A DNA stretch of 64,000 bases from Rhodospirillaceae bacterium (GCA_041905795.1 JAYRKL010000007.1:112572-176571); one strand, 5' to 3'. Numbered from the stretch's first letter, positions 43,454-56,311 are shown. Numbers and translations: made by a program. The notes: generated from the sequence alone by a model not told the origin.

Positions 43454-44302
43454 TCAGTGAAGGCGCTCGCGCAACTCTTTCACCACATCGGCGATCTTGC
43501 GCCGGTCAGGGCCGTCGGGGGTCCTGGCGACAAAGGCTTCAAAGGACTCGACGGCATGTTTGAGGTGCCCGAGGCGCATATGCATCACCCCGGCCTCCCG
43601 CCAGAAGGAACCGTTGGCCGGGTCCAGGGTTTGCAGGGAGTCCAGGGCTTCCAGGGCGCCGGCCACCTCGTTCTGCTCCAGGCGCCGGGTTTTGACGTTG
43701 TTCTGCAGGCGGATCAGGATCTCGCGGTTGGTCACCGGCTGATAGTGGCTCGCGTCCAGTTCTTCGGCCGCGCCCCGCACCACCTTGAGCAATTCGCGCA
43801 ACGCCCGGATCTCCAGCGAGCGGCCGTTGTAGAACGGGTCGACGATCACCCGCTGGCCGTCGCTGCTTTCCAGGCGGATCAGGAAATGGCCGGGGAAATT
43901 GAGCCCCGCCGCGCTCCAGCCCTGGGCCCGCGCCGCGAACAGATAGAGGATGCCCAAAGACACCGGCAGGCCTTTGCGGCGCTCGATCACGCGCATGAAG
44001 TTGGCGTTGTCGAGGTCGTTGTAGGTTTCCTCGTCGCCGGTGTAGCGGAACTCTTCGGCCAGAACCCGGCGCAAGGTTTCGGCCATGTCCTCGGGCGCCG
44101 CGTCGGCGCCCAGGCCCTGCTCGTCGGCGGCGTCGCGCACCGCTTTCGCCAGCGCCTTGAGATGATCGCGATAGACCTTGAGGTCGGCGGCGGGATGATC
44201 GAAGGACGCGAGCACCAGCGCGGCCTCGGCCAGATCGATGTCCTCGTCGCCCTGCGCGGCGATCTCGCGCAGGGCCGCCTTGCTTCGCTCCGCCGCCGCC
44301 AA
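43454..44302 (-). CDS. SirB1-like protein (transglutaminase-like N-domain plus TPR)
   Basis: 'RRKGLPVSLGILYLFAARAQGW...NFPGHFLIRL' is characteristic of the SirB1/UPF0162 family. Confidence 0.78.
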   Translation of the reverse strand: MAAAERSKAALREIAAQGDEDIDLAEAALVLASFDHPAADLKVYRDHLKALAKAVRDAADEQGLGADAAPEDMAETLRRVLAEEFRYTGDEETYNDLDNANFMRVIERRKGLPVSLGILYLFAARAQGWSAAGLNFPGHFLIRLESSDGQRVIVDPFYNGRSLEIRALRELLKVVRGAAEELDASHYQPVTNREILIRLQNNVKTRRLEQNEVAGALEALDSLQTLDPANGSFWREAGVMHMRLGHLKHAVESFEAFVARTPDGPDRRKIADVVKELRERLH

Positions 44303-44365
44303 GGAGACGCTCCGGTTACAGATTTGCCTTGGATTATCTAGCGCACTTCGCGCGCGCTTCCAACA

Positions 44366-44758
44366 TCAGGGACGCCAGGCGTCAATGATGTGCTGCGGCC
44401 AGAGGCCCCGGCCCAGGCTCATGACATCGAAGCGTATGTCAAAATCCGCGCAGGCAGGGTTGCGTTCAATGAAGACCTGTGCCGCGCGCGCGATCCGTGC
44501 GCGTTGCGCCGCCGTGACGGACTCTCTCGCGGTGTCGTGATCGGCGCGGGCTTTTACCTCGATGAAAGCCACGGTGCGCCCGCGTTTGGCGACAATATCG
44601 ATTTCACCCAGGCCGGTGCCGGCTCCCGCTTTCAGGCGATGGGCGAGGATGCGCCAGCCGGTCAGGCGCAGGATCGAGAGGCAGAGGAACTCCGCGATCC
44701 TTCCGCGCCGCTCCGCGGCGACCCGCCCCCGCCGCTCTGCCTGCTGCTTGGCGCTCAC
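44366..44758 (-). CDS. yraN: YraN family endonuclease-like protein (UPF0102)
   Basis: 'GEIDIVAKRGRTVAFIEVKAR' motif. Overlap-coupled to rsmI. Confidence 0.85.
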   Translation of the reverse strand: MSAKQQAERRGRVAAERRGRIAEFLCLSILRLTGWRILAHRLKAGAGTGLGEIDIVAKRGRTVAFIEVKARADHDTARESVTAAQRARIARAAQVFIERNPACADFDIRFDVMSLGRGLWPQHIIDAWRP

Positions 44759-45735
44759 GTGTCCTTGGCCAGTTCCAGGGCGCGGCTGTAGATGGCGCGG
44801 CGCGGCTGGTTCAGCTGTTCCGCCACCAGGGCGGCGGCGTCGCGCAAGGACAGTTTCTCCATGGCCTGGCGCAAGGCGGCATCGATGTCGTCGGCGCTGA
44901 TCTCGGCGACAACGTTCGGCGCGCCCGCCACCACGATCACGGCTTCGCCTTTGGGTGTGGGCTCCTCAGCGTAGGCCACCGCGAGATCGGCGAGCGATCC
45001 GCGCCGCACCTCTTCGTGAAGCTTGGTGAGTTCGCGGCAGACGGCGGCGTCGCGTGCGCCCAGACCGGCGTGAAGATCGGCCAGGGTCTCGGCGATGCGC
45101 TGGGTGGATTCATAGAACACCAAGGTTGCCGCCAGGCCGCGCACTTCGGCGATGGCGTCCTGTCGCGCCTTGGCGCGATTGGGCAGGAAGCCGGCGAACA
45201 GGATGCGGTCGGTGGGGATGCCGGCGGTCACCGCGGCGGCCAACATCGCCGACGGGCCGGGGATCGGCACGACGCTGTGGCCGGCGTCGGCGCAGGCGCG
45301 CACCAGCTTGTAACCGGGATCGGAGATCAGCGGCGTGCCCGCGTCGCTCACCAGCGCCACGGCGGCGCCTTCGGCGATGCGCGCCAGCAGGGCAGGCCGC
45401 GCCCGGTCGGCGTTATGGTCGTGATAGGGCGTCAGCGGCGTCGGGATGTCGAAATGCAGCTTCAGGCCCCCGGTGACGCGGGTGTCCTCGCAGGCGATCA
45501 GGTCGGCGTCCCGCAAGGTCCGCGCCGCCCGCGCGGTCATGTCGCCGAGGTTGCCGATGGGCGTCGCCACCACATACAGGCCGGGGGCTAATTTGCCTTT
45601 GAGGGCGTTGGTTGCCGAACCGGTTGCCTTGGGGCCGCCCGATTTACTTGCGACGCTCGCGCCTGTAGGTTCGCCGCCACGCTTACCCCCGCTGTCAGAG
45701 GTGCCCCTTGGGCCTCGTTTTCCCCCGGCTTTCAT
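44755..45735 (-). CDS. rsmI: 16S rRNA (cytidine1402-2'-O)-methyltransferase RsmI
   Basis: 'LYVVATPIGNLGDMTARA...LIACEDTR' motif. The basic Gly/Lys-rich N-terminal extension makes the start uncertain. Confidence 0.88.
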   Translation of the reverse strand: MKAGGKRGPRGTSDSGGKRGGEPTGASVASKSGGPKATGSATNALKGKLAPGLYVVATPIGNLGDMTARAARTLRDADLIACEDTRVTGGLKLHFDIPTPLTPYHDHNADRARPALLARIAEGAAVALVSDAGTPLISDPGYKLVRACADAGHSVVPIPGPSAMLAAAVTAGIPTDRILFAGFLPNRAKARQDAIAEVRGLAATLVFYESTQRIAETLADLHAGLGARDAAVCRELTKLHEEVRRGSLADLAVAYAEEPTPKGEAVIVVAGAPNVVAEISADDIDAALRQAMEKLSLRDAAALVAEQLNQPRRAIYSRALELAKDT

Positions 45736-47132
45736 GGCTCAAAACGGTCCTGGTTTCGGCGTCGGTGGTGGCGTCGCTCACCCTCGCGGGATGCGCGTCG
45801 AAAGGTGTAGCACCGCGTGCGCCTCAGCCCCAGCGGCAAGCTGTCGTTAAGCCGCCGGTCTCGACCCAACCGCAATCCACCTTGCAGCCGCCGCCCGCCG
45901 CGGCGCGCGCGGTCCTGCCGCCGAACCAGCTGATCCCCGGCCTCGGCGCGCAAAGCCAGGCCCAGGGTCAAGCGGGCCGGCCCGACGCCGGCGGCCTGGT
46001 GCGCGTCGGCCTGTTGGTGCCGCTCAGCGGTCCGTCGGCGGCCATCGGCCAGGCGCTGCTCAACGCCGCCGAGATGGCGCTGTTCGATGTCGGCGACGAA
46101 CACCTGGTGATGCAGGTCTATGACAGCCAGGGCACGCCCGAAGGCGCCGCGCAGGCCGCGCAAAAGGCCATCAGCCACGGCGCGCAGTTGCTGCTGGGGC
46201 CGCTGTTCTCGGCGGAAGCCAAGGCCGCCGCCGGCCCCGCCGCCGCCGCGGGCGTCAACCTGGTCGCCTTCTCCACCGACCCCGCCATCGCCGGTCCCAA
46301 TACGTTTGTGATCGGCTTCCTGGTGCAGGAACAGGTGCGCCAGATCGTGGCCTATGCGCGCAGCCAAGGGCTTTCCAAATTCGCCGTGCTGGCGCCCAAC
46401 TCGGCCTATGGCCAGGCGGTGGTGGAGGCGCTGCAGCGTTATGTGCCGGCGCGCGGCGCCAAGGTCACGCAAGTGTCCTTCTACGATCCCGACGGCAAGG
46501 ATCTCACGGAAGTGGTGCGCTCGCTGGCGTCCTTCGACCAGCGCAAGAAAACCCTCGAACAGCAGAAAGCCGAGCTGGTCGGCAAGACCGACGAGATTTC
46601 CCAAATGGCGCTGAAGCGCCTGGAGCGCCTGGAAACCGTGGGTGAAGTGGGTTTCGACACCATCCTGTTGCCGGAACAGGGCACGCGCCTCACCCAGGCC
46701 GCATCCTTGCTGTCGTTCTATGACATCGATCCCGGCCGCGTGCAGTTGCTGGGGACCCTGTTGTGGGATTCGCCCGGCCTGGGCCGTGAGCCGGTGATGG
46801 TGGGCGGCGTCTATCCGGCGCCGCCGCCGGAGGCCAACCGCCAATTCTTCGCCCGCTACCGCGAACTCTATGGCCGCGCCGCGCCGACCATCGCCAGTCA
46901 TGGCTACGATGCTTTGGCTCTGGCGGCGATCCTGGCGCGCAGCGGCGAGCCGGCGCCGTTCTCGGCCCAGGCGCTGATGTCGCCGTCGGGCTTCGCCGGC
47001 GTGGACGGGATTTTCCGCTTCATGCCCGATGGCCTGTCCCAGCGGGGCTTTGCCATCATGCAGGTGACCAAGACCGGCAGCGCCGTGGCGCAACCGGCGC
47101 CCACGGCGTTCGACGCGCCCGCTACCAATTAA
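45708..47132 (+). CDS. Penicillin-binding protein activator (LpoA-like) lipoprotein with type-1 periplasmic binding fold
   Basis: Lipobox 'LTLAGCAS', a Pro/Gln-rich linker, then a Leu/Ile/Val-binding-protein-like domain. It is divergent from rsmI, as is commonly seen. The TTG start is inferred. Confidence 0.72.
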   Translation: MGLVFPRLSWLKTVLVSASVVASLTLAGCASKGVAPRAPQPQRQAVVKPPVSTQPQSTLQPPPAAARAVLPPNQLIPGLGAQSQAQGQAGRPDAGGLVRVGLLVPLSGPSAAIGQALLNAAEMALFDVGDEHLVMQVYDSQGTPEGAAQAAQKAISHGAQLLLGPLFSAEAKAAAGPAAAAGVNLVAFSTDPAIAGPNTFVIGFLVQEQVRQIVAYARSQGLSKFAVLAPNSAYGQAVVEALQRYVPARGAKVTQVSFYDPDGKDLTEVVRSLASFDQRKKTLEQQKAELVGKTDEISQMALKRLERLETVGEVGFDTILLPEQGTRLTQAASLLSFYDIDPGRVQLLGTLLWDSPGLGREPVMVGGVYPAPPPEANRQFFARYRELYGRAAPTIASHGYDALALAAILARSGEPAPFSAQALMSPSGFAGVDGIFRFMPDGLSQRGFAIMQVTKTGSAVAQPAPTAFDAPATN

Positions 47133-47134
47133 AC

Positions 47135-47866
47135 TTATTCCGCCGGCTTGGCGGGATAGATGCTCTTCGCCAACGAATCTTTCACGTTGGTGGCGGCGCG
47201 CAGCTGGTTGCGCTGGATGATGGCCTGTGGGTTGTCGTTGCCGACGCCGTAGACCGCCGCGTTCCAGTCCTTGCGCGGACGGATGACCGCGCCTTCCAGG
47301 CTGCCGCCGGCGAATAGGCCGGAGCTTTTGGAATAGGCGACGATGTCCTGGCCGACATGCGTCGTGGTGGCGGCTTCGGCGCCGGCACCGATGGTGCCGA
47401 TGCTCATGCCGACATTGGCACCCAGTTTGAACTCGTCGTTCAGCACCGCCGACAGGCCCTTCTCGGTCAGGATCATGAACACGATCTCGTCCGACTTCAT
47501 GCCGATCTGCAAGCCGATGGAGCCCGCGGTCATGCGGTAGAAGGCGGGATCGCCGAAGCCAGAGCCATCGGGCAGGCGCTGCAGCAGCACGCCGTCGCCG
47601 TAGGCGCCGCCCAGCACGAAACTGGCCTTGTTGTAGGACGGGATGATCAGCACGCCCTTGGCGCGGGCCAGGAGGTCGTCCATGTCGCTGGACTTCTTCA
47701 ACTCCTGGCGCACGCGGTCGACGGTGATCGAGGACTCGTCCAGCACGTGGCGGGCGTCGAGCACGTCATCGGCGCGGGCGGGGGCCGCTGCTGCGGCGCC
47801 CAGCGCGAGAATCCCGGCAGCCGCCGCGCGGCGGGACATGAGGTTGGTCATGGTGTGTGTCTCCAA
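47135..47866 (-). CDS. SYLF (Ysc84-like, DUF500) lipid-binding domain protein, exported
   Basis: 'SRRAAAAGILALGAAAAAPARA' Tat-like signal. 'FYRMTAGSIGLQIGMKSDEIVFMILTEKG' SYLF core. Confidence 0.8.
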   Translation of the reverse strand: METHTMTNLMSRRAAAAGILALGAAAAAPARADDVLDARHVLDESSITVDRVRQELKKSSDMDDLLARAKGVLIIPSYNKASFVLGGAYGDGVLLQRLPDGSGFGDPAFYRMTAGSIGLQIGMKSDEIVFMILTEKGLSAVLNDEFKLGANVGMSIGTIGAGAEAATTTHVGQDIVAYSKSSGLFAGGSLEGAVIRPRKDWNAAVYGVGNDNPQAIIQRNQLRAATNVKDSLAKSIYPAKPAE

Positions 47867-47964: not shown

Positions 47965-48753
47965 TTAACCGGCATTAAGCAGTAATCCCCGTTTGCGGGC
48001 AATGTGAAAGGTCCACTGGAAGACGGCAATTCCGAGCGCCAGGTAAACCAGGTCCAGGACAAAGCCCTGCCAGAGGTAGTCGGTGCGCACCACGCCCTCG
48101 AGCACGATGGCGCGCATGCCCTCGAACACATAGGCGCTGGGCAGGGCCCAGGCCACCGGCTGCAGCCAGCCGGGAAGTGCTGCGATCGGATAATAGACGC
48201 CGGCGATGGGCATGATGGCGAACATGGCGGCCCAGGCAAAAGCTTCCGCCGCGAGGCCCCAGCGGATCAGGATCGCCATGATGAACATACCGAAGGCCCA
48301 GCCGAACATGGACAGGAGCAGGTAGAAGGCGATCAGCGGCGCGCCCAGGTCGAAGATGGAATAGCCGAACAGCGGCACCAGCCCGAGGATCGCCGGCAGC
48401 AGGCTGACGACGGTGCGCACCAGGCTGGTGACCATGCAGCCGATCAGAAGCTCATGGGGCCGCAACGGGCTGATGAACAGGTGCCCAAGATTGCGCGAGA
48501 AGAACTCTTCGACAAAGGTGACGGTCATGCCGAGGTTGGAGCGGATCAGGATCTCCCACAGCACCACCGCGCCGAGGAACAGGCCGGCGGCCTGGGTGAT
48601 GCCGAAGGTATTGCTGCGCAGATAGACCGTGATGAAGCCCCATACGGCGAGATTCATGAACGGCCAGTAGATCAGCTCGACGATCCGCATGGGCGAGCGC
48701 CGCAGCAGGTAGAGGTAGCGCAAGGCCATCGCATAGATGCGTGTGAAGTTCAT
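47965..48753 (-). CDS. ABC-2 type transporter permease
   Basis: Six predicted hydrophobic helices at ABC-2 family length. Its ATG overlaps the ATPase stop by 4 nt. Confidence 0.85.
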   Translation of the reverse strand: MNFTRIYAMALRYLYLLRRSPMRIVELIYWPFMNLAVWGFITVYLRSNTFGITQAAGLFLGAVVLWEILIRSNLGMTVTFVEEFFSRNLGHLFISPLRPHELLIGCMVTSLVRTVVSLLPAILGLVPLFGYSIFDLGAPLIAFYLLLSMFGWAFGMFIMAILIRWGLAAEAFAWAAMFAIMPIAGVYYPIAALPGWLQPVAWALPSAYVFEGMRAIVLEGVVRTDYLWQGFVLDLVYLALGIAVFQWTFHIARKRGLLLNAG

Positions 48754-49502
48754 TTGCCCGCCTCCTCGCCGCCGCGGGCGATATGCAGGAACACTTCCTC
48801 GAGGCTATCGCGGCCGTATTTCTGGATGAGATCCTTAGGTGCGCCGCGGTCGTGGATCTTGCCGGCCTTCATCATCAGGAGTTCGTCGCACATGCGCTCG
48901 ACCTCCAGCATGTTATGCGAGGCGAAGAAGATGGCCGCGCCGCTGGTGCGGGCATAGTCCGACAGCACGCCGCGCACCCAGTCGCCGGTGTCTGGATCGA
49001 GGGACGCGGTGGGCTCATCCAGCACCAGCACCTTGGGCGCATTGATGAGCGCCTTGGCCAGAGCCACACGGGTTTTCTGTCCCGCGGACAATTCGCGCAC
49101 CCGGCGCTTCAGGACCTCGTTCAACTGCAAAAGCCCGGCGAGTTCTTCGATGCGCGCGTTCAAAGCCTTCACGCCATAGAGCCGGCCGTAAACTTTCAGG
49201 TTCTCCGTGACCGTCAACTCGCCCGGCAAATCCACATAAGGCGAGGAGAAGTTCATGAACGGCAGCGCCTGGAACCGTTCGCTGGCCATGTTGTGGCCCA
49301 GCACGCGCGCTTCGCCCGCGGTCGGCAGCAACAGGCCGAGCAGCATGGCGATGGTGGTGGTCTTGCCGGCGCCGTTGCCGCCCAAGAGTGCGACGATGCC
49401 GCCCTGCGGCACGGTGAACGAGATTCCGTTCACGGCCGGGACGTCCTCGAAATGTTTGGTCAGCCCGCGCGCTTCGATGGCCGGGACGGCGTCTTCAGAC
49501 AT
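48750..49502 (-). CDS. ABC transporter ATP-binding protein (ABC-2 exporter type)
   Basis: Walker A 'GGNGAGKTTT', signature 'LSAGQKTRVALAKAL' and Walker B 'LVLDEPT'. Start set at the ATG for MSEDAV, which overlaps the upstream stop as TGATG. The 564-aa track ORF is an artefact. Confidence 0.92.
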   Translation of the reverse strand: MSEDAVPAIEARGLTKHFEDVPAVNGISFTVPQGGIVALLGGNGAGKTTTIAMLLGLLLPTAGEARVLGHNMASERFQALPFMNFSSPYVDLPGELTVTENLKVYGRLYGVKALNARIEELAGLLQLNEVLKRRVRELSAGQKTRVALAKALINAPKVLVLDEPTASLDPDTGDWVRGVLSDYARTSGAAIFFASHNMLEVERMCDELLMMKAGKIHDRGAPKDLIQKYGRDSLEEVFLHIARGGEEAGK

Positions 49503-50752
49503 CAAAGCCGCGTGCGTACCAGGCCGTCGATATAGCGGCCCTGGAACAAGGTGATACCCAGCTGCTGGCCGACCTTGACGCAGGCTTCGGAGTCGCAGCG
49601 CGCGAGGATGGTGCGGCCTTTCTTGCGCTCGCGGATCAGGTCTTTCAGGTCCTTGCCCATCTCGGAACCCGCATAAGCGGCCATTTCCTGGCTCCAGCCG
49701 AGTTTGGCGTAGGCGACGCCCAGGCGCAGGGTGTCGGCGTAAGGGAACGTGTTCAGGTTCAGGCCGTCGACACAGATGCGGTAGCCGCGCTCGGTGACGA
49801 AGTCGCGGGCGAAGGCGAAGGCATTGGGATCGGCGAACATGTCTTCCAGGCGCATCTCCAACACCACGTCCTGGCTCGAGGGCGCGAAGTCGTCGTCGAA
49901 CTGCAGGAAATCTTCCGACAGCACGGTGGAGACGTTGACATTGATGGAGAAGCCGTCGCGCACCAGGGTTCGGTCCTCGCGCCGCGCGATCTGCGCCATG
50001 ACGCGCCGGTCCAGGGTCTGGGTGAAGCGCTGGAACAGCCACGGATTGATGGTCAGATTGGTGCGCGGCATCAGGGTTTCGCGCAGGTCGGGGATCGACA
50101 CGAACACTTCCGTGAAGATCACTTCGGGCTTGCCGTCCTCGACGAAGGCGCACACCGGTTGTCTGCGGGTGAAGCTCGACAGATCGACGCGCTGCAGCGA
50201 GTCCTCGGCTTTGCCCAGTTCCAGCGGCGTGAGCGGCGTGCCCTTCTCGGGGTTGGAGCGCATCAGTTCGCGCTCGGCGATCAGCTCGGTCAGGTTCTTG
50301 CGCACGGCCTTCTCGCTGCCGGCGCTCTGGCGCATGGCAAAGGCCAATAACTTGTCGTAGTCCTTGCTCATGTCGAACCAGCTCGACAGCCGGTTCTGGC
50401 GCGCGTCGTTCTTGAATTTCTGCATCAGCGCGTCGCGTTCCCACAGCTTCAGCAGCTTGAGGACGGCGCGCTCGGCGGTGTCGGTCTCGTGGCGCTCGAA
50501 CACGACCATGAGGTCGGAGTTGCGCAGGCGGTAGAGCCAGGCGGAGCGCGTGCGCGTGAGTTCGTCGAAGGCGGTTTCGGCGTTGCGCAGGTTCTGCTTG
50601 TCGCGGTGTTCGGGCTCCAGGCGCGACAGATGCAGGCGGATCACGCCCTTGTTGCGGTTGCCCGGATCCATGGCGCGCAGATCGTCGAGGAAGCGCGCTT
50701 CATGGCTTTCGCCCAGGGGATGGGTGGCGGTGCCGCCGGCCTGATCGCTCAT
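49502..50752 (-). CDS. Cytoplasmic protein with degenerate GGDEF-like and EAL-like regions (paralogue B)
   Basis: By-eye alignment to EAL landmarks: FTEVFVSI / INVNVS / VVLEMRLED / ICVDGLNLNT / AKLGW / LARCDS / FQGRY. The N-terminal region has 'LRNSDLMVVF' where GGDEF would sit. ATGA overlap with paralogue A. Confidence 0.72.
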   Translation of the reverse strand: MSDQAGGTATHPLGESHEARFLDDLRAMDPGNRNKGVIRLHLSRLEPEHRDKQNLRNAETAFDELTRTRSAWLYRLRNSDLMVVFERHETDTAERAVLKLLKLWERDALMQKFKNDARQNRLSSWFDMSKDYDKLLAFAMRQSAGSEKAVRKNLTELIAERELMRSNPEKGTPLTPLELGKAEDSLQRVDLSSFTRRQPVCAFVEDGKPEVIFTEVFVSIPDLRETLMPRTNLTINPWLFQRFTQTLDRRVMAQIARREDRTLVRDGFSINVNVSTVLSEDFLQFDDDFAPSSQDVVLEMRLEDMFADPNAFAFARDFVTERGYRICVDGLNLNTFPYADTLRLGVAYAKLGWSQEMAAYAGSEMGKDLKDLIRERKKGRTILARCDSEACVKVGQQLGITLFQGRYIDGLVRTRL

Positions 50753-51993
50753 TTCGGCGCTCCCGCCGGGGTGCGCGCGCCCGCCGCCGGCGCGGCCTGC
50801 GCCGGGCGCTTGCGGCCCTTGCTGAAGGCGTCGAGGAAGTGGCCTTGGAACACGCAGATGCCGGTCTTCAGCCCCCACGCCAGGGCGGCGGCTGATTCGC
50901 AGCGGGAGAGGATGGTCTTGTCGGCGCCGATCTCGGCGATCATGGCGCTGGTGTTGGCGAGGCTCTTGGTGTTGGACGTGTCGAGGAGTTCCGGCGCCCA
51001 GACGATCTTGACGTAGTCGGGCTTCATGGCCGCCACGTCCAGCATCTCGATGGTGGTGGTGGTGAGGCCGTCGATCAGGATGGCGTGGCCCATGGACGCC
51101 ATCACGTTGCGTATGTCGATATACATGCCGATGTTGGTCAGGAGGTCGGCCGCGGTCACCTCGACGATGACTTTCTGCCCTTTCTCCAGCGCCTGGACGA
51201 AGCTGCCGAAGGCGGGCGTCAGGATGGTCTCGAGGTTGAGATTCAGGCTGAGGCAGGGAATGCCGCGGGCCTGGGGGGCACGCACCACGCTCTCCAGCAT
51301 GCGGATGTCCATGGTGCGGGACAGGTCCTGGAACAGCGACCGGTCGCCGAACAGATTGATGTGGGGCGCGATGGTGCGCTGCAGATCGCCCACCGACAGG
51401 AAAAACTCGTAGAACTCGATCGAGGCTTCCTTGGTCTGCGGATTGATGCGCAAGGCCACCTGGTCGCGGATGAAGGGCACGACGTTGGCGAAGGCGAGTT
51501 TCTTCTGCACGTCATCGAGCATCGCCGGCGTGATCGGCGGCAGCGGCGCGGCCAGCGCCCGGGGCGGCGCAACCTGGGCTTCCTGGCGCAACTGCTGGGC
51601 GGCGTGGATCGCCACCGCGGCGTCCAGCGCCAGGTCGTACCAGGCGATGAACTGGTCGTTGCCCTCGGCGTCGTCCAGGGTGATCGGGTCGCCCTCGAAC
51701 AGTTTGCGTACGCGCAGCACGATGTTGTTGACGTCGCGCTGGGCGCCGCCGTTGAGGATCAGCACCAGGTCGTCGTTGGACAGGTTGAAGAGCTGCGCCT
51801 GGCGGCCGCTTTCCAGCACGCGGAACATGCGCGTGACGATCTTGATGCGGACCGGGGTGCGGTTGGAGGGCAGCAGCTTGGACAGGCGGATATGCACCGC
51901 CTTGCGGCCCTCGGGGTTACGCCGGACGCGGTCGAGGGTGTCGACCAACAGGGTCTCTTGGTAGCCTTTGGCGCCCTGGTTCGTTGCGTTCAT
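50749..51993 (-). CDS. Cytoplasmic protein with degenerate GGDEF-like and EAL-like regions (paralogue A)
   Basis: It has the same architecture as paralogue B: FYEFFLSV / LNLNLE / VIVEVTAAD / ILIDGLTTTT / VKIVW / LSRCES / FQGHF. The N-terminal region has 'LSNDDLVLIL'. No signal peptide or TM segment. Confidence 0.72.
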   Translation of the reverse strand: MNATNQGAKGYQETLLVDTLDRVRRNPEGRKAVHIRLSKLLPSNRTPVRIKIVTRMFRVLESGRQAQLFNLSNDDLVLILNGGAQRDVNNIVLRVRKLFEGDPITLDDAEGNDQFIAWYDLALDAAVAIHAAQQLRQEAQVAPPRALAAPLPPITPAMLDDVQKKLAFANVVPFIRDQVALRINPQTKEASIEFYEFFLSVGDLQRTIAPHINLFGDRSLFQDLSRTMDIRMLESVVRAPQARGIPCLSLNLNLETILTPAFGSFVQALEKGQKVIVEVTAADLLTNIGMYIDIRNVMASMGHAILIDGLTTTTIEMLDVAAMKPDYVKIVWAPELLDTSNTKSLANTSAMIAEIGADKTILSRCESAAALAWGLKTGICVFQGHFLDAFSKGRKRPAQAAPAAGARTPAGAPK

Positions 51994-52232
51994 GCGTCTT
52001 CAATTGTAGAGAAGCGGAAAGCCGTCCAGCCGGGGTTTCCGGACCCTGGTTGCCGTGTGGTTTTAGCGTCTCAAACCCTGGCCGTCCAATGGGTCATCCT
52101 GACCGGTAACCATTTGGAAAAGATTAACGAATATTTTGCTGCACGGTCCGGGTATACCCGGAAAAGCGGCCCCGGCGGCGGTTTCCGGGATCCGCGTACG
52201 CGACCGGCTCTTGAAGTGGGTTTGAGGATCGA

Positions 52233-53171
52233 ATGACACGCATTGTGGTGACGGGCGGCGCCGGGTTCATCGGTTCCCATATATGTGAACGGCTCCTGGC
52301 CGCCGGCAACGAGGTGCTGTGTGTGGATAACTTCTTCACCGGGCGCCGGCAGAACATCACGCCGATGCTCGCCAACCACAATTTCGAGCTGATCCGGCAC
52401 GACGTCACCTTCCCGCTCTATATCGAGGCCGACCAGATCTACAACATGGCCTGCCCGGCCTCGCCGGTGCACTACCAGTTCGATCCGGTGCAGACCACCA
52501 AGACCAGCGTCCACGGCGCCATCAACATGCTGGGGCTGGCCAAGCGCACAAAGGCGAAAATCCTCCAGGCTTCCACCAGCGAGGTCTACGGCGACCCGGC
52601 CATTCATCCGCAGGTGGAAAGTTACTGGGGCAACGTCAATCCCATCGGCCCGCGCGCCTGCTACGACGAAGGCAAGCGCTGCGCCGAAACCCTGTTCTTC
52701 GACTATTACCGCCAGCACAAGCTGCGCATCCGCGTGGTGCGCATCTTCAACACCTATGGCCCGCGCATGCTGCCGGACGACGGCCGCGTGGTGTCCAACT
52801 TCGCGGTGCAGGCGCTCAAGGGCGAGCCCATCACGGTCTACGGCAAAGGCGACCAGACCCGGTCGTTCTGCTACGTCGACGATACCGTGGACGGGATCAT
52901 CCGCCTGATGAACGCGCCGGACGACGTCACCGGCCCGGTCAACATCGGCAATCCCGTGGAGACCACGGTCTACGAACTGGCGGAAAAGATCATCAAGCTC
53001 GCCAAGTCGCCGTCGAAAATCATCCACAAGCCCTTGCCGCAGGACGACCCCGTGCGCCGCCGTCCCGATATCGGCATCGCCAAGGACAAGCTGTCGTGGC
53101 AGCCGTCCGTCGCTCTCGACGACGGCCTGGAACGCACGGTGCATTTCTTCCGCGGACTGCTCGCGCAATAG
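52233..53171 (+). CDS. UDP-glucuronate decarboxylase (UDP-xylose synthase) SDR
   Basis: '[13 protein letters not shown]', '[10 protein letters not shown]' and 'YDEGKRCAE' are characteristic of UXS. Confidence 0.9.
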
Positions 53172-53187
53172 ACCGGACGGGCCATCC

Positions 53188-54690
53188 ATGCCTTCAGGCC
53201 CCGACGGTTCCGATCCCAGCGCGCCCTTTGAGCAAGCGGCGGCCGGACTGATCGGCGATTTCGCCGGCCGGCGCATCCTGTGTGTCGGCGACGTGATGGT
53301 GGATCACTCGCTCTACGGCGAAGTCAAACGCCTGTCGCCGGAAGCCCCGGTGCCGGTGGTGCGCGTCACCCGCGAGTCCAGCGACCTTGGCGGCGCCGGC
53401 AACGTGGCGCGCAATATCGCCGCCCTGGGCGCGTCCTGCGCCTTCGTGTCGATCATCGGCGACGATCGCGGCGGTCAGCAGGCCAGCGAATTGCTGGCGC
53501 GCCTGCCGCAGACCGATCCCTACCTGCGCGTCGCGAAGGGCCGCGAAACCACCATCAAGAACCGCTTCTTCAGCAACGACGGCCATCATCTGCTGCGCGC
53601 CGACCGCGAAACCGTGATGCCGCTGACCGGCGCCGATCTCGCCGACCTCGAACGCGCGGCGGCGGCGGAGATCGTCCGCTGCGACGCGGTGATCCTGTCC
53701 GACTACGCCAAAGGCATGCTGACCACCGGCCTGGCGGCGGCCGTGATCGCCGCCGCGCGCGCCGCCGGCAAGCCGGTGATCGTCGATCCGAAAACGTCCG
53801 ATTACGAGCGCTACCGCGGCGCCACCATCATCACCCCCAACCGCGCCGAACTGGCCGAAGCCACCGGCATGGCGGTGGAGTCCGACGCGGCCATTGTCGC
53901 GGCTGCGCAAGTCCTGCGCGGCCGCACCGGCGCCGCCGCCATCCTGGTCACACGCTCCGGTGAAGGCATGAGCCTGGTCGCCGGCGACGGCGTCTATCAT
54001 CTGCCGGCCGAGAACCGCGAAGTGGCCGATGTCACCGGCGCGGGCGATACCGTGATCGCGGTGTTCTCGCTGGCGGTGGCCGGCGGCGCATCCATGGTCG
54101 CGGCGGCGCGGCTGGCCAATATCGCTGCGGGTATTGTCGTCGGCCGCCAGGGCACGGCGGTCGCCACCGCCGCCGATCTCACGGCGGCGCTGCGGCACAG
54201 CGGTTTGGCCGGGGCGGAAGAGAAAATCGTGGACCGTGCGACCGCCGCCGCGAAGGCCGGCGACTGGCGGCGGCAGGGCTTGAAAGTGGGTTTCACCAAC
54301 GGCTGCTTCGATTTGCTGCATCCCGGCCATGTCTCGCTGCTGCGCCAGGCGCGCGCCGCCTGCGACCGCCTGGTGGTGGGTTTGAACAGCGACGCTTCGG
54401 TCAGACGCCTGAAGGGCGAGACCCGGCCGGTGCAGACCGAATCCGCGCGGGCGACGGTCATGGCCTCGCTGGCGTCGGTCGATCTGGTGGTGATCTTCGG
54501 CGAAGATACGCCGCTGGACCTGATCGAACAGGTGCGGCCCGACGTGCTGGTGAAAGGCGCGGACTACACCCGGGACAAGGTGGTCGGCGGCGATTTTGTC
54601 GAGAGCACCGGCGGGCGGGTAGTACTGGCGGAGGTGGTGCCGGCGTTTTCGACCACCGCGACCATTGCCTCGCTCAAGAAACCTGGGTGA
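53188..54690 (+). CDS. hldE: Bifunctional D-beta-D-heptose 7-phosphate kinase / heptose 1-phosphate adenylyltransferase
   Basis: N-terminal ribokinase-like domain ('GDVMVDHSLYGEV...PEAPVPV', 'TGAGDTV') and C-terminal cytidylyltransferase domain ('GFTNGCFDLLHPGHV'). Confidence 0.92.
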   Translation: MPSGPDGSDPSAPFEQAAAGLIGDFAGRRILCVGDVMVDHSLYGEVKRLSPEAPVPVVRVTRESSDLGGAGNVARNIAALGASCAFVSIIGDDRGGQQASELLARLPQTDPYLRVAKGRETTIKNRFFSNDGHHLLRADRETVMPLTGADLADLERAAAAEIVRCDAVILSDYAKGMLTTGLAAAVIAAARAAGKPVIVDPKTSDYERYRGATIITPNRAELAEATGMAVESDAAIVAAAQVLRGRTGAAAILVTRSGEGMSLVAGDGVYHLPAENREVADVTGAGDTVIAVFSLAVAGGASMVAAARLANIAAGIVVGRQGTAVATAADLTAALRHSGLAGAEEKIVDRATAAAKAGDWRRQGLKVGFTNGCFDLLHPGHVSLLRQARAACDRLVVGLNSDASVRRLKGETRPVQTESARATVMASLASVDLVVIFGEDTPLDLIEQVRPDVLVKGADYTRDKVVGGDFVESTGGRVVLAEVVPAFSTTATIASLKKPG

Positions 54691-54714
54691 TGATGGGGGC
54701 TTGGGGGACCGACG

Positions 54715-55104
54715 ATGAAAAAATCAGGATCGCATCTTCTGGCTTGTGCCGCGGGGCTGGCGCTCTCGGCCTGCGGCAATGACGGCCGCCTGTTCCCCGA
54801 TGTGAAGACCGCCGAAGTCTTCGGCACCCAGTACGCCGCTCCGGCGCCGACCGTGCGCCAGCCGATCCTGCCGGAAATGCTGGTGCCCTGCCGCGGCCAT
54901 GTGCTGGTGCCGGCCATCGGCATGCTGCTGGTGCCGCGCGGCAAGGAAGCGCCGGCGGAAGGCCAATACCTCAAGGAAGAGCACCTCACCGCGCCCTACC
55001 GCATCCTGCCGCCGGGTGCGCGCATCAGCCAGGAAATCAGCCCGGCGCGCCTGAATGTCGAACTGGACCGCGATGGCCGCATCACCGGCCTGTATTGCGG
55101 CTGA
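54715..55104 (+). CDS. Lipoprotein with peptidase-inhibitor I78-like C-terminal domain
   Basis: Lipobox 'LALSACGN' and C-terminal 'YRILPPGARISQEISPARLNVELDRDGRITGLYCG'. Confidence 0.68.
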   Translation: MKKSGSHLLACAAGLALSACGNDGRLFPDVKTAEVFGTQYAAPAPTVRQPILPEMLVPCRGHVLVPAIGMLLVPRGKEAPAEGQYLKEEHLTAPYRILPPGARISQEISPARLNVELDRDGRITGLYCG

Positions 55105-55152
55105 GCGCGTTTCCGGGAAAGCCGTTCCGTCCGGACAGGCGCCGAAAATACA

Positions 55153-55701
55153 TCAGTAATCTTGAATCCGCGGATCGGTCATGGCGTTGAGCCTTTGACC
55201 GGCGGCCAAGGCAAACCGCAATGTCAGCGCCTTGCGCCGGCCGGCGTGCAGCGGATGATGCGGCGCCTGGCGTACCACCGCCGCCGAGTAGTTATCGGCG
55301 ATGATGACGCCGCAGGTGGCAGGCAGGATCTGCCAGGGGAAGTGCGGCGGCACGGCGAAGGAAAACGCGTCGCAGTAAGGCACGTATTCCAGCCACTTGG
55401 CGTCGCCCCTGAAATCCTCGGGCGTGCTTTTCACTTCCACCATCAGGATGACGCCGGCGGCGTTGAGGCCCACCACATCCGCCCGCCGGCCGTTGCCCAG
55501 CTTGAATTCCATCAGGTTCGAGAACCCCAGGTCATCCATCCAGCGGCAGACGCCGCGCGTGACGGCGGCGGTCACTGCCGGCGGCGACATGGCGCGGCTC
55601 AGGGTGCTGTGGGCCTCTGCGCCGGGTGCGATCACCGGCGCATCGGCGGCGCCGAAGTCAGTTGCAGAAACCAGATCGGACAAGCCCGGGATGTTCCTCA
55701 T
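55153..55701 (-). CDS. MmcB-family DNA repair (endonuclease-like) protein
   Basis: 'RRADVVGLNAAGVILMVEVKSTPEDFRGDAKW' PD-(D/E)xK-like core. Start set at the ATG for MRNIPG. Confidence 0.72.
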   Translation of the reverse strand: MRNIPGLSDLVSATDFGAADAPVIAPGAEAHSTLSRAMSPPAVTAAVTRGVCRWMDDLGFSNLMEFKLGNGRRADVVGLNAAGVILMVEVKSTPEDFRGDAKWLEYVPYCDAFSFAVPPHFPWQILPATCGVIIADNYSAAVVRQAPHHPLHAGRRKALTLRFALAAGQRLNAMTDPRIQDY

Positions 55702-55891
55702 ATGTTCCCCCGCACCGCACTCTACGGCGCGCCGCGTCCGCTCGCAACAACATGACCGACAAGCCAGGGCCAACAAGCGGGCCAGCAAGGGAGGCAAGGA
55801 CATGGCTGCCATCGCGTCCTCGTGTGTTTTATTCGCCGGCTAACTCCCTATGGTGTCGCCGCTTTTTTGGTTTGAGACGGTGGAGACGACG

Positions 55892-56311
55892 ATGAAAGTG
55901 ATCCGGGCCAAGCTTCACGGCATCAAGGTGACGGGGGCGGATCTGCATTATCACGGGTCCATTACCCTGGACCCCGAGCACGGCGCGGCCGCCGGGCTCT
56001 ATCCCACCGAGTTCGTGGAGATCTGGAACAAGAATTCTGGCGCCCGCATCACCACCTATGTGATCTACGGCGTGCCGGGATCGCGCTGCTGCATCTTGAA
56101 CGGCGCCGCGGCGCGCACCTGCCAGAAGGGCGACGAGCTGATCATCGCCGCGTCGGACGACGTGCGGCCGGAAGACCTGTATGCCTTGAAGCCGAAGGTG
56201 TTGACCTTCACCCCCGACAACGACATCGACCAGGTGCTGCAGTACGAGGTCTACAAAGGACCCGAGCGGGATTTCGATTTCCGGATCGTTGACCTGACGC
56301 CGCGTAAGTAA
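55892..56311 (+). CDS. panD: Aspartate 1-decarboxylase
   Basis: 'MKVIRAKLHGIKVTGADLHYHGSITLD', including the Gly-Ser self-cleavage site. Confidence 0.92.
   Translation: MKVIRAKLHGIKVTGADLHYHGSITLDPEHGAAAGLYPTEFVEIWNKNSGARITTYVIYGVPGSRCCILNGAAARTCQKGDELIIAASDDVRPEDLYALKPKVLTFTPDNDIDQVLQYEVYKGPERDFDFRIVDLTPRK

Follow-up and report, generated by a model that had tools for sequence, protein, structure and literature searches.

Paralogous EAL-like proteins with a remodelled pocket, encoded beside an ABC-2 exporter in a Rhodospirillaceae bacterium

The window analysed here is a 64,000-nt stretch of a contig assigned to a Rhodospirillaceae bacterium (GCA_041905795.1, JAYRKL010000007.1:112572-176571), and our subject is a row of four minus-strand genes within it, at 47965-51993. 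Gene A (50749-51993) is an open reading frame for a soluble protein of 414 amino acids (aa), assigned through a Pfam EAL match below the cut-off, an AlphaFold2 (AF2) model compared by Foldseek, and motif mapping. Gene B (49502-50752) encodes its paralogue, 416 aa long, which shares the architecture and the conserved pocket residues of A. They are followed by an ATP-binding cassette (ABC) ATPase of 250 aa that consists of a nucleotide-binding domain (NBD) only (48750-49502; PF00005) and by an ABC-2 family permease of 262 aa with multiple hydrophobic segments (47965-48753; PF12698, PF01061, hydropathy). Read base by base on the minus strand, the A stop and B start overlap as ATGA at 50752-50749, the B stop (TGA, 49504-49502) and the ATPase start (ATG, 49502-49500) share a base in TGATG at 49504-49500, and the ATPase stop and permease start overlap as ATGA at 48753-48750. 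All three overlaps lie exactly where a preliminary description of this DNA had placed them. Shine-Dalgarno (SD)-like motifs stand 7 nt before the B start (GGGAG, 50764-50760) and 7 nt before the permease start (GAGGAGG, 48767-48761), and none was found on the minus strand in front of the ATPase start. Three public contigs of this species, on which genes had been called independently, carry the identical four lengths and overlaps.

Overlaps of 1 and 4 nt are an ordinary signature of bacterial operons. The four genes lie on one strand with overlapping stop and start codons, no terminator-like or sigma-70-like site was seen on the coding strand between them, and they look like one transcription unit. 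The overlaps support co-transcription and are possibly a sign of coupled translation, which is as far as the co-translation claimed in the preliminary description can be followed. The fixed stoichiometry thought probable alongside it is not supported, as ordinary operon overlaps say nothing on stoichiometry and the junctions vary among relatives, from -4 to +26 nt between A and B and from -4 to +141 nt between B and the ATPase.

A and B are 26% identical over 382 residues (E=1e-38) and are therefore paralogues. Neither has a transmembrane-like hydrophobic window by hydropathy, while the permease has several, in keeping with the two soluble paralogues of about 415 aa described earlier. In their C-terminal halves both match Pfam EAL (PF00563) below the gathering cut-off of 31.3 bits (27.6 bits for A, 27.5 bits for B), and neither matches GGDEF (PF00990). 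Nothing significant was found in NCBIfam, where a match to CsrD was weak (E=0.064). Residues 1-150 have no match in Pfam, in NCBIfam or, by sequence (phmmer) or profile, in the PDB; PDB sequence and profile searches do reach EAL domains marginally (profile E=1e-6 to 1e-3).

The AF2 model of A (mean pLDDT, the predicted local distance difference test, 88.8) divides into a palm-like (GGDEF-like) domain at residues ~10-145 and an EAL-fold domain at ~155-392. By model and hydropathy, input domains are absent, and only a helix of ~14 residues lies at the N-terminus. In Foldseek searches the full-length model matches GGDEF-EAL tandem structures over ~430 columns, with MorA the best (E=3e-13) and further full-length matches to RbdA/PA0861, PA0575, DosP and LapD (E to 1e-8) and to BlrP1; many EAL structures match as well (E 1e-13 to 1e-6), EAL-only chains with TMt 0.55-0.60. 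Modelled alone, the N-terminal domain (pLDDT 90.8, predicted TM-score 0.85) has the topology of a trimmed beta-alpha-beta-beta-alpha-beta palm. Its best PDB matches are GGDEF domains (DosC, PA2567, TM1788, GcbC, FimX, WspR), but these are weak (E>=0.013, TM-score 0.32-0.46). Across the A/B family neither a GG[DE]EF motif with its Mg-binding Asp nor a match to a GGDEF sequence model was found; in a hand alignment x-N-x-D-L stands in place of the motif, where N73 is nearly invariant and D75 invariant. The A model and the Pfam matches thus indicate an EAL fold for the C-terminal halves of A and B, and the EAL part of the label "pseudo-GGDEF/EAL" used previously holds, on fold and full-length tandem matches. 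"Pseudo-GGDEF" is the best available label for the N-terminal domain, on a fold-level likeness that is weak when the domain is searched alone. A part in anti-phage defence was considered and rejected: in PADLOC the ATPase had no more than generic ABC-type matches, and A, B and the permease had none at all.

The EAL-type pocket was mapped by aligning the family profile to Escherichia coli PdeL with hhalign, the direct alignment of PdeL to its hidden Markov model being too weak; HMMER alignments to RbdA agree with this mapping for the C-terminal half of the EAL domain, from the Asn onward. Residue counts cover 171 members of the family, drawn from close A, distant A, close B, distant B and single-copy groups (five in all), and the numbering used here is that of A. 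Invariant positions are Q178 (Q of "QP"), E196 (E of EAL; PdeL E141), N251, E278 (first E of ExxE; PdeL E232), the family-specific D283, D308 (first D of DD; PdeL D262) and K329 (PdeL K283). The catalytic N253 (PdeL N200) is kept in 170/171 sequences, P210 of the loop following EAL in 168/171, and Q383 of QG (PdeL Q339) in every sequence with a residue there, five being gapped. Asp or Glu occupies position 366, the second E of EGVE (E366 in A; PdeL E321), in 162/171. Other signature positions have been replaced: the Arg of EALxR (PdeL R145) is Ser in 165/171 (S200), the second D of DD (PdeL D263) is Gly in 162/171 (G309), the first E of EGVE (PdeL E318) is Ser, Ala or Cys (S363), and the second E of ExxE is not conserved (A281). 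Moreover, loop 6 (DFGTGYSS) is unrecognisable, and an RxxD I-site is not conserved across the 171 members. The complete catalytic signature (EALxR, N, ExxE, DDFG(T/A)GYSS, K, EGVE, QG) is hence not found in the family. The pocket set as a whole is kept in both A and B, and the earlier statement that these proteins have no recognisable catalytic signature was wrong, as a conserved, remodelled EAL signature is present in both paralogues.

The pocket is therefore remodelled and not decayed. Strong selection acts on the first metal site, made up of E196, N253, E278 and D308, on the catalytic-type Lys and on the position of the acidic base; the second-metal Asp, loop 6 and the Arg are gone. In the receptor LapD, an Arg (R450) lies at the centre of the cyclic di-GMP (c-di-GMP) site and the metal-binding Glu has been lost in a KVL motif (PMC3032553). 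The A/B family shows the reverse, with the Glu kept and the Arg replaced by Ser, and this pattern of conservation argues for a functional metal/nucleotide pocket and makes binding or hydrolysis of c-di-GMP in the canonical way uncertain.

Comparison with known systems places A and B near several of them. Like the LapD and FimX receptors, they combine a palm-like and then an EAL-fold domain with non-canonical motifs in both, and an output through protein-protein contact would be expected in each case; by Foldseek, the A model gives a full-length match to LapD (3pjw, 6pwj/6pwk) and matches FimX at the EAL domain. The LapD pathway is likewise tied to an ABC-dependent export system. However, that transporter is a type I secretion ABC, whereas the neighbour of A and B is an ABC-2 (type V) pump; LapD has transmembrane/HAMP and FimX REC/PAS input domains, whereas A and B have none; and A and B form a tandem paralogue pair, unlike LapD or FimX. 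What A and B share with the LapD/FimX type is thus the tandem, at fold level only, while the key Arg and the input domains are absent. With catalytic EAL proteins (PdeL/YahA, RocR, RbdA) they have in common the fold and the Q, E, N, E, first D, K, second acidic residue and QG, and they differ in Ex[FY]xS for EALxR, DG for DD, [SAC]RC[DE] for EGVE and a degenerate loop 6. PelD and BcsE, in which a catalytically dead cyclase-like domain serves as a sensor for envelope export, offer a concept-level analogy; no sequence or fold match between them and A or B was found, and the I-site is not conserved in the A/B family.

The two downstream genes are an ABC ATPase and an ABC-2 permease, as had been proposed, with Pfam matches above cut-offs for both (ATPase, PF00005, E=2e-29, 103 bits; permease, PF01061, 38.8 bits, and PF12698, 42.4 bits). 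The ATPase translation shows GGNGAGKTT, LSAGQ and VLVLDEP, and these NBD motifs together with a separate, adjacent ABC2_membrane permease are the attributes of an ABC-2 (type V) exporter. A two-gene ATPase and permease unit with an ATGA overlap is shared with exporters such as DrrAB, NodIJ, YadGH and Wzm-Wzt. The nearest solved structures of the ATPase are ABCA-type NBDs (ABCA7, ABCA3, ABCA4, ABCA1), and its NCBIfam matches are to DrrA/NodI/RbbA-like models; the window pump stays below every NCBIfam equivalog cut-off. No close solved relative of the permease emerged from the PDB search, and no glycosyltransferase, PCP, OPX or outer-membrane export genes were seen adjoining the pump. Orthology with E. 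coli YadGH was rejected, the permease being 21% identical to YadH and the ATPase 32% identical to YadG, with no equivalog cut-off reached.

A and B belong to a large uncharacterised family of Rhodospirillales-like Alphaproteobacteria. Close homologues are plentiful in metagenomes and in Rhodospirillaceae-labelled metagenome-assembled genomes (MAGs), at 58-90% identity for A and 56-100% for B, and a protein identical to B (P0121) is present in public assemblies. A profile search of 1.84 billion cluster representatives (50%-identity clusters) retrieved 1455 proteins at E<=1e-3, of which 429 reach E<=1e-30, and the 150 best matches are mostly full-length proteins of 400-465 aa. Named members are called "hypothetical" or "EAL domain-containing" and come from Alphaproteobacteria, Rhodospirillales, Stellaceae and Magnetospirillum MAGs. 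Among 77 diverse members, 64 match Pfam EAL (E<=0.01) and no other Pfam family. Neither Pfam nor NCBIfam has a named family for A and B, and our literature search found no paper describing the family or an EAL/ABC-2 system, which agrees with the preliminary description in knowing of none. The duplication that gave rise to A and B is old, since in a neighbour-joining (NJ) tree both clades take in distant pairs. A full-length B homologue of 27% identity is encoded on the chromid of Azospirillum brasilense Sp7 (plasmid p1, NZ_CP012915.1 501921-503045; L137), between an RNase D-like gene (rnd) and polyphosphate kinase (ppk), with no ABC pump linked; this homologue offers no hint of function, and its stretch has no entry in the PLSDB gene table. 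Many distant members (P0242, P0244, P0245, P0247, P0249-P0253) carry a C-terminal extension with four conserved Cys, approximately C-x5-6-C-x4-C-x13-14-C (alignment A4, columns ~430-470), which is absent from A and B of the window and may be a metal or Fe-S site.

The four genes stand in a longer block. Downstream of the permease, after 98 nt, lies a SYLF/Ysc84-domain gene (47135-47866, minus strand; PF04366, E=2e-28, and synteny), and divergent from A, on the plus strand, lie genes for a UXS-like NAD-dependent sugar-nucleotide decarboxylase/epimerase (52233-53171) and for HldE, a bifunctional heptose kinase/adenylyltransferase (53188-54690). Altogether, 43454-47866 holds a transglutaminase/TPR-like gene, yraN, rsmI, an lpoA-like LppC gene and the SYLF gene, and 52233-56311 holds UXS, hldE, a small lipoprotein-like open reading frame, an mmcB-like gene and panD. 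We take this block to echo in part the E. coli rsmI-lpoA-yraN cluster. Its gene order around the four genes is kept in a related metagenome contig (L138).

Among close relatives, 49 species-level genome loci have the order hldE-(UXS)-A-B-...-SYLF-lpoA-rsmI. Median identities to the window are 69% for A, 76% for B, 68% for hldE, 80% for UXS and 61% for rsmI, and A and B are under strong purifying selection. The gap between them always stays within the range given above, save for a few loci with frameshifts or assembly breaks. The SYLF gene follows directly after B in most relatives, and ABC genes lie between B and SYLF at 4/49 loci (L001, L022, L027, L046), to which metagenomes add three more ABC-positive close-clade loci (L055, L056, L139). 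On an NJ tree (drawn without bootstrap values) the ABC-positive loci are scattered among ABC-negative sisters, a distribution that fits repeated loss or relocation. The contig L138 carries, in order, panD, mmcB, hldE, UXS, the ABC pair, Ysc84, LppC and rsmI, with ~540 nt in the place of A and B; its hldE and ATPase appear fragmented, so that either a deletion variant or an assembly of low quality may be at hand.

Distant loci were retrieved from metagenomes with a profile built on distant members (alignment A4); the identity of their family proteins to A or B is 28-44%. Genes for A-like, B-like, ATPase and permease proteins stand in this order at eight of them (L067, L068, L070, L071, L077, L078, L080, L082). 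At approximately eleven others a single family gene, nearer to B than to A by tblastn in all but one, is followed directly by the same pump; at three further loci, one of them from a Magnetospirillum MAG (L134), the pump lies no more than 2.5 kb away. The distant pump proteins are 59-64% (ATPase) and 44-53% (permease) identical to those of the window, and overlaps of -1 or -4 nt between B and the ATPase recur (L068, L070, L071, L078, L120). The flanks differ from locus to locus (adenylosuccinate lyase (ADSL)/nitroreductase, hybrid kinase/UbiA, CobT, gpsA, MFS, hemerythrin). With the last family gene clustered at 70% identity, there are 22 informative clusters overall, 10 always linked to the pump, 3 mixed and 9 never linked, and about half of the informative distant loci have the ABC pair. 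A gene for a calcineurin-like phosphoesterase (Metallophos) is divergent from the A-like gene in one distant subclade (L068:544-1350, L077:4104-4913, L080:3979-4821, L082:3175-3948) and may be another conserved partner.

The link between A/B and the exporter thus seems to be ancient, recurrent and facultative in both directions, and the fact that it outlasts replacement of the flanks counts as good comparative evidence that the genes are co-transcribed and functionally connected. Because distant loci share the arrangement and the ABC-positive loci are scattered in the tree, we infer ancestral linkage with repeated loss, and on the same two observations reject a recent insertion of the ABC genes. 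The conserved unit itself is the family gene or gene pair. Co-conservation of all four genes, as implied by the preliminary description, accordingly fails in the close clade and is found at about half of the informative loci of the distant one, where the arrangement recurs in differing flanks. The word "hard-wired" does not suit a pump that is present at 4/49 close-clade loci, that occurs apart from A and B in L138 and in other taxa, and whose overlaps with them are not conserved.

The divergent intergenic region between A and UXS-hldE (51994-52232) contains an invariant block and two inverted repeats. The block, TTAATCTTTTCCAAATGGTTAC, is AT-rich, 22 nt long and lies on the minus strand at 52106-52127, with conserved context in the alignment to ~52133. 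Besides the window, 62 close-clade loci whose sequence covers the upstream region have it (63 in total), in one copy, in the orientation of A and with <=3 mismatches, mostly 0-1; in intact loci it stands 75-254 nt upstream of the A start. It is unique in the 64-kb window, where 0 copies are expected. Outside it the spacer is unalignable between species, while A itself is 55-90% identical in those loci. The block was not found in the distant clade and matches no recognised consensus. From this pattern, TTAATCTTTTCCAAATGGTTAC is a strong candidate for an operator or promoter element of this locus. The inverted repeat CGGAAA-N15/17-TTTCCG occurs twice in the spacer (52015-52041 and 52159-52187, 144 nt apart) against 0.06 expected, and exact copies in this spacer are limited to near-identical strains (L142-L144). 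No sigma-70 consensus promoter and no coding-strand terminator were seen in the spacer or leader; a riboswitch or known RNA in the leader was rejected, as Rfam gave no match at E<=1.

Our tentative reading, held at somewhat less than even confidence, is that A and B are a cytoplasmic pair of nucleotide-binding sensors whose genes were ancestrally co-transcribed with those of a type-V ABC-2 exporter, which they probably modulate. A and B would work together, probably as an EAL-EAL heterodimer, which is likely because EAL domains commonly dimerise. As a sensor they would bind a nucleotide in a metal-dependent manner, hydrolyse it weakly or not at all and, in lineages with the ancestral arrangement, would be co-transcribed with the exporter and modulate it by protein-protein contact. 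The exporter would probably handle an envelope lipid or glycoconjugate, and A and B probably have at least one further target. Since the pump is found where A/B are missing, and A/B where no pump adjoins them, their coupling would be accessory and regulatory and not that of an obligate complex; the pump is an autonomous two-gene unit. That hldE and UXS are persistently adjacent suggests a role in the envelope or in nucleotide-sugar metabolism, but this adjacency could equally be inherited synteny.

Several observations weigh against a tie to the exporter, and they lend some credence to a possible alternative in which the genes are neighbours only: A and B would form a self-contained signalling module with its target elsewhere (e.g., the divergent heptose/UDP-sugar genes or some other process of the envelope), and the pump would be an unrelated housekeeping exporter in an old syntenic block, panD-mmcB-hldE-UXS-[A-B]-[ABC]-SYLF-lpoA-rsmI-yraN, co-transcription here being incidental. 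That block is kept in 49 genomes, and ~45 of these loci have no ABC genes in it, though A and B stay highly conserved. A-B-ABC, A-B alone and ABC alone all exist, the last in L138 (2963-5816), which has the synteny and the ABC pair, no A or B, and the invariant upstream block, retained despite the A-B deletion. Pump homologues without a family gene (53-54% permease identity) are also found near Ysc84 and rsmI in another alphaproteobacterium and in a gammaproteobacterial assembly labelled Thiogranum longum. In the distant clade ~20 loci with enough downstream sequence lack the pump, 12 of them with hldE immediately downstream, and hldE/UXS adjacency is so widespread, there too, that part of the linkage may be inherited synteny. 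Furthermore, the ATPase, being an NBD only, has no extra domain that could dock a regulator. On the other hand, distant flanks have been replaced, yet (A)-B-ATPase-permease remain contiguous on one strand with short or overlapping junctions, linkage is seen in 13/22 informative clusters, and such persistence would be unusual for functionally unrelated genes at 28-44% protein identity.

What A and B do with their pocket is a separate matter, and c-di-GMP is itself a doubtful ligand for the sensor proposed here because the Arg central in LapD is Ser in 165/171 sequences. It is unlikely that A and/or B are active enzymes that hydrolyse c-di-GMP or another phosphodiester (pGpG, another cyclic dinucleotide, a nucleotide-sugar) by a modified, effectively one-metal mechanism. 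The (near-)invariance of E196, N253, E278, D308, K329, D/E366 and Q383 in both paralogues, matching PdeL E141, N200, E232, D262, K283, E321 and Q339, would suit an enzyme, as would the metal-binding Glu, which receptor-type EALs such as LapD lose and this family keeps. Set against this are the Gly for the second Asp of DDFG, the Ser/Ala/Cys for the first Glu of EGVE, the lost second Glu of ExxE, the Ser for the Arg after EAL, the unrecognisable loop 6 and Pfam EAL scores below threshold; such changes usually abolish c-di-GMP hydrolysis. Very unlikely, in our estimate, is a nucleotide-independent adaptor like CsrD or YdiV, its domains co-opted for protein or RNA binding and its polar residues structural or partner-binding. 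GGDEF-EAL and EAL proteins that do not bind c-di-GMP have precedent, the c-di-GMP Arg is lost, and the CsrD match mentioned above points the same way, but that match is not significant. Adaptor-type EALs have lost metal ligands, while in this family four metal ligands and the Lys are (near-)invariant over very deep divergence in both paralogues, which a ligand or metal site explains best. We also consider it quite unlikely that a re-tooled pocket recognises or cleaves something else than c-di-GMP, for instance a different (cyclic) nucleotide or a nucleotide-activated sugar of the hldE/UXS pathway, and that the A/B heterodimer uses this signal to gate type-V ABC-2 export of a lipid or glycoconjugate of the envelope.

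Most "orphan" receptors of the c-di-GMP type fall into the class of degenerate GGDEF/EAL proteins, and LapD, FimX, CsrD and YdiV each revealed a different output mechanism. Against this background the A/B family stands out as large, strongly constrained and unnamed in Pfam and NCBIfam, with a pocket signature that is the inverse of the LapD type. If the link to the pump is synteny only, the finding reduces to a new uncharacterised EAL-like family. Should the pocket have been re-tooled to gate export, the locus would represent a class of nucleotide-sensor-gated ABC-2 export modules that has so far escaped recognition and is widespread among Rhodospirillales-like bacteria. Cultured carriers may be available in Magnetospirillum, where the only sighting so far is in a MAG placed in that genus, and, at a greater distance, in A. 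brasilense Sp7. The recurrent placement of these genes before one ABC-2 pump and beside heptose/UDP-sugar genes leads to a concrete, testable hypothesis of envelope-export control in a little-studied, mostly uncultured alphaproteobacterial group.

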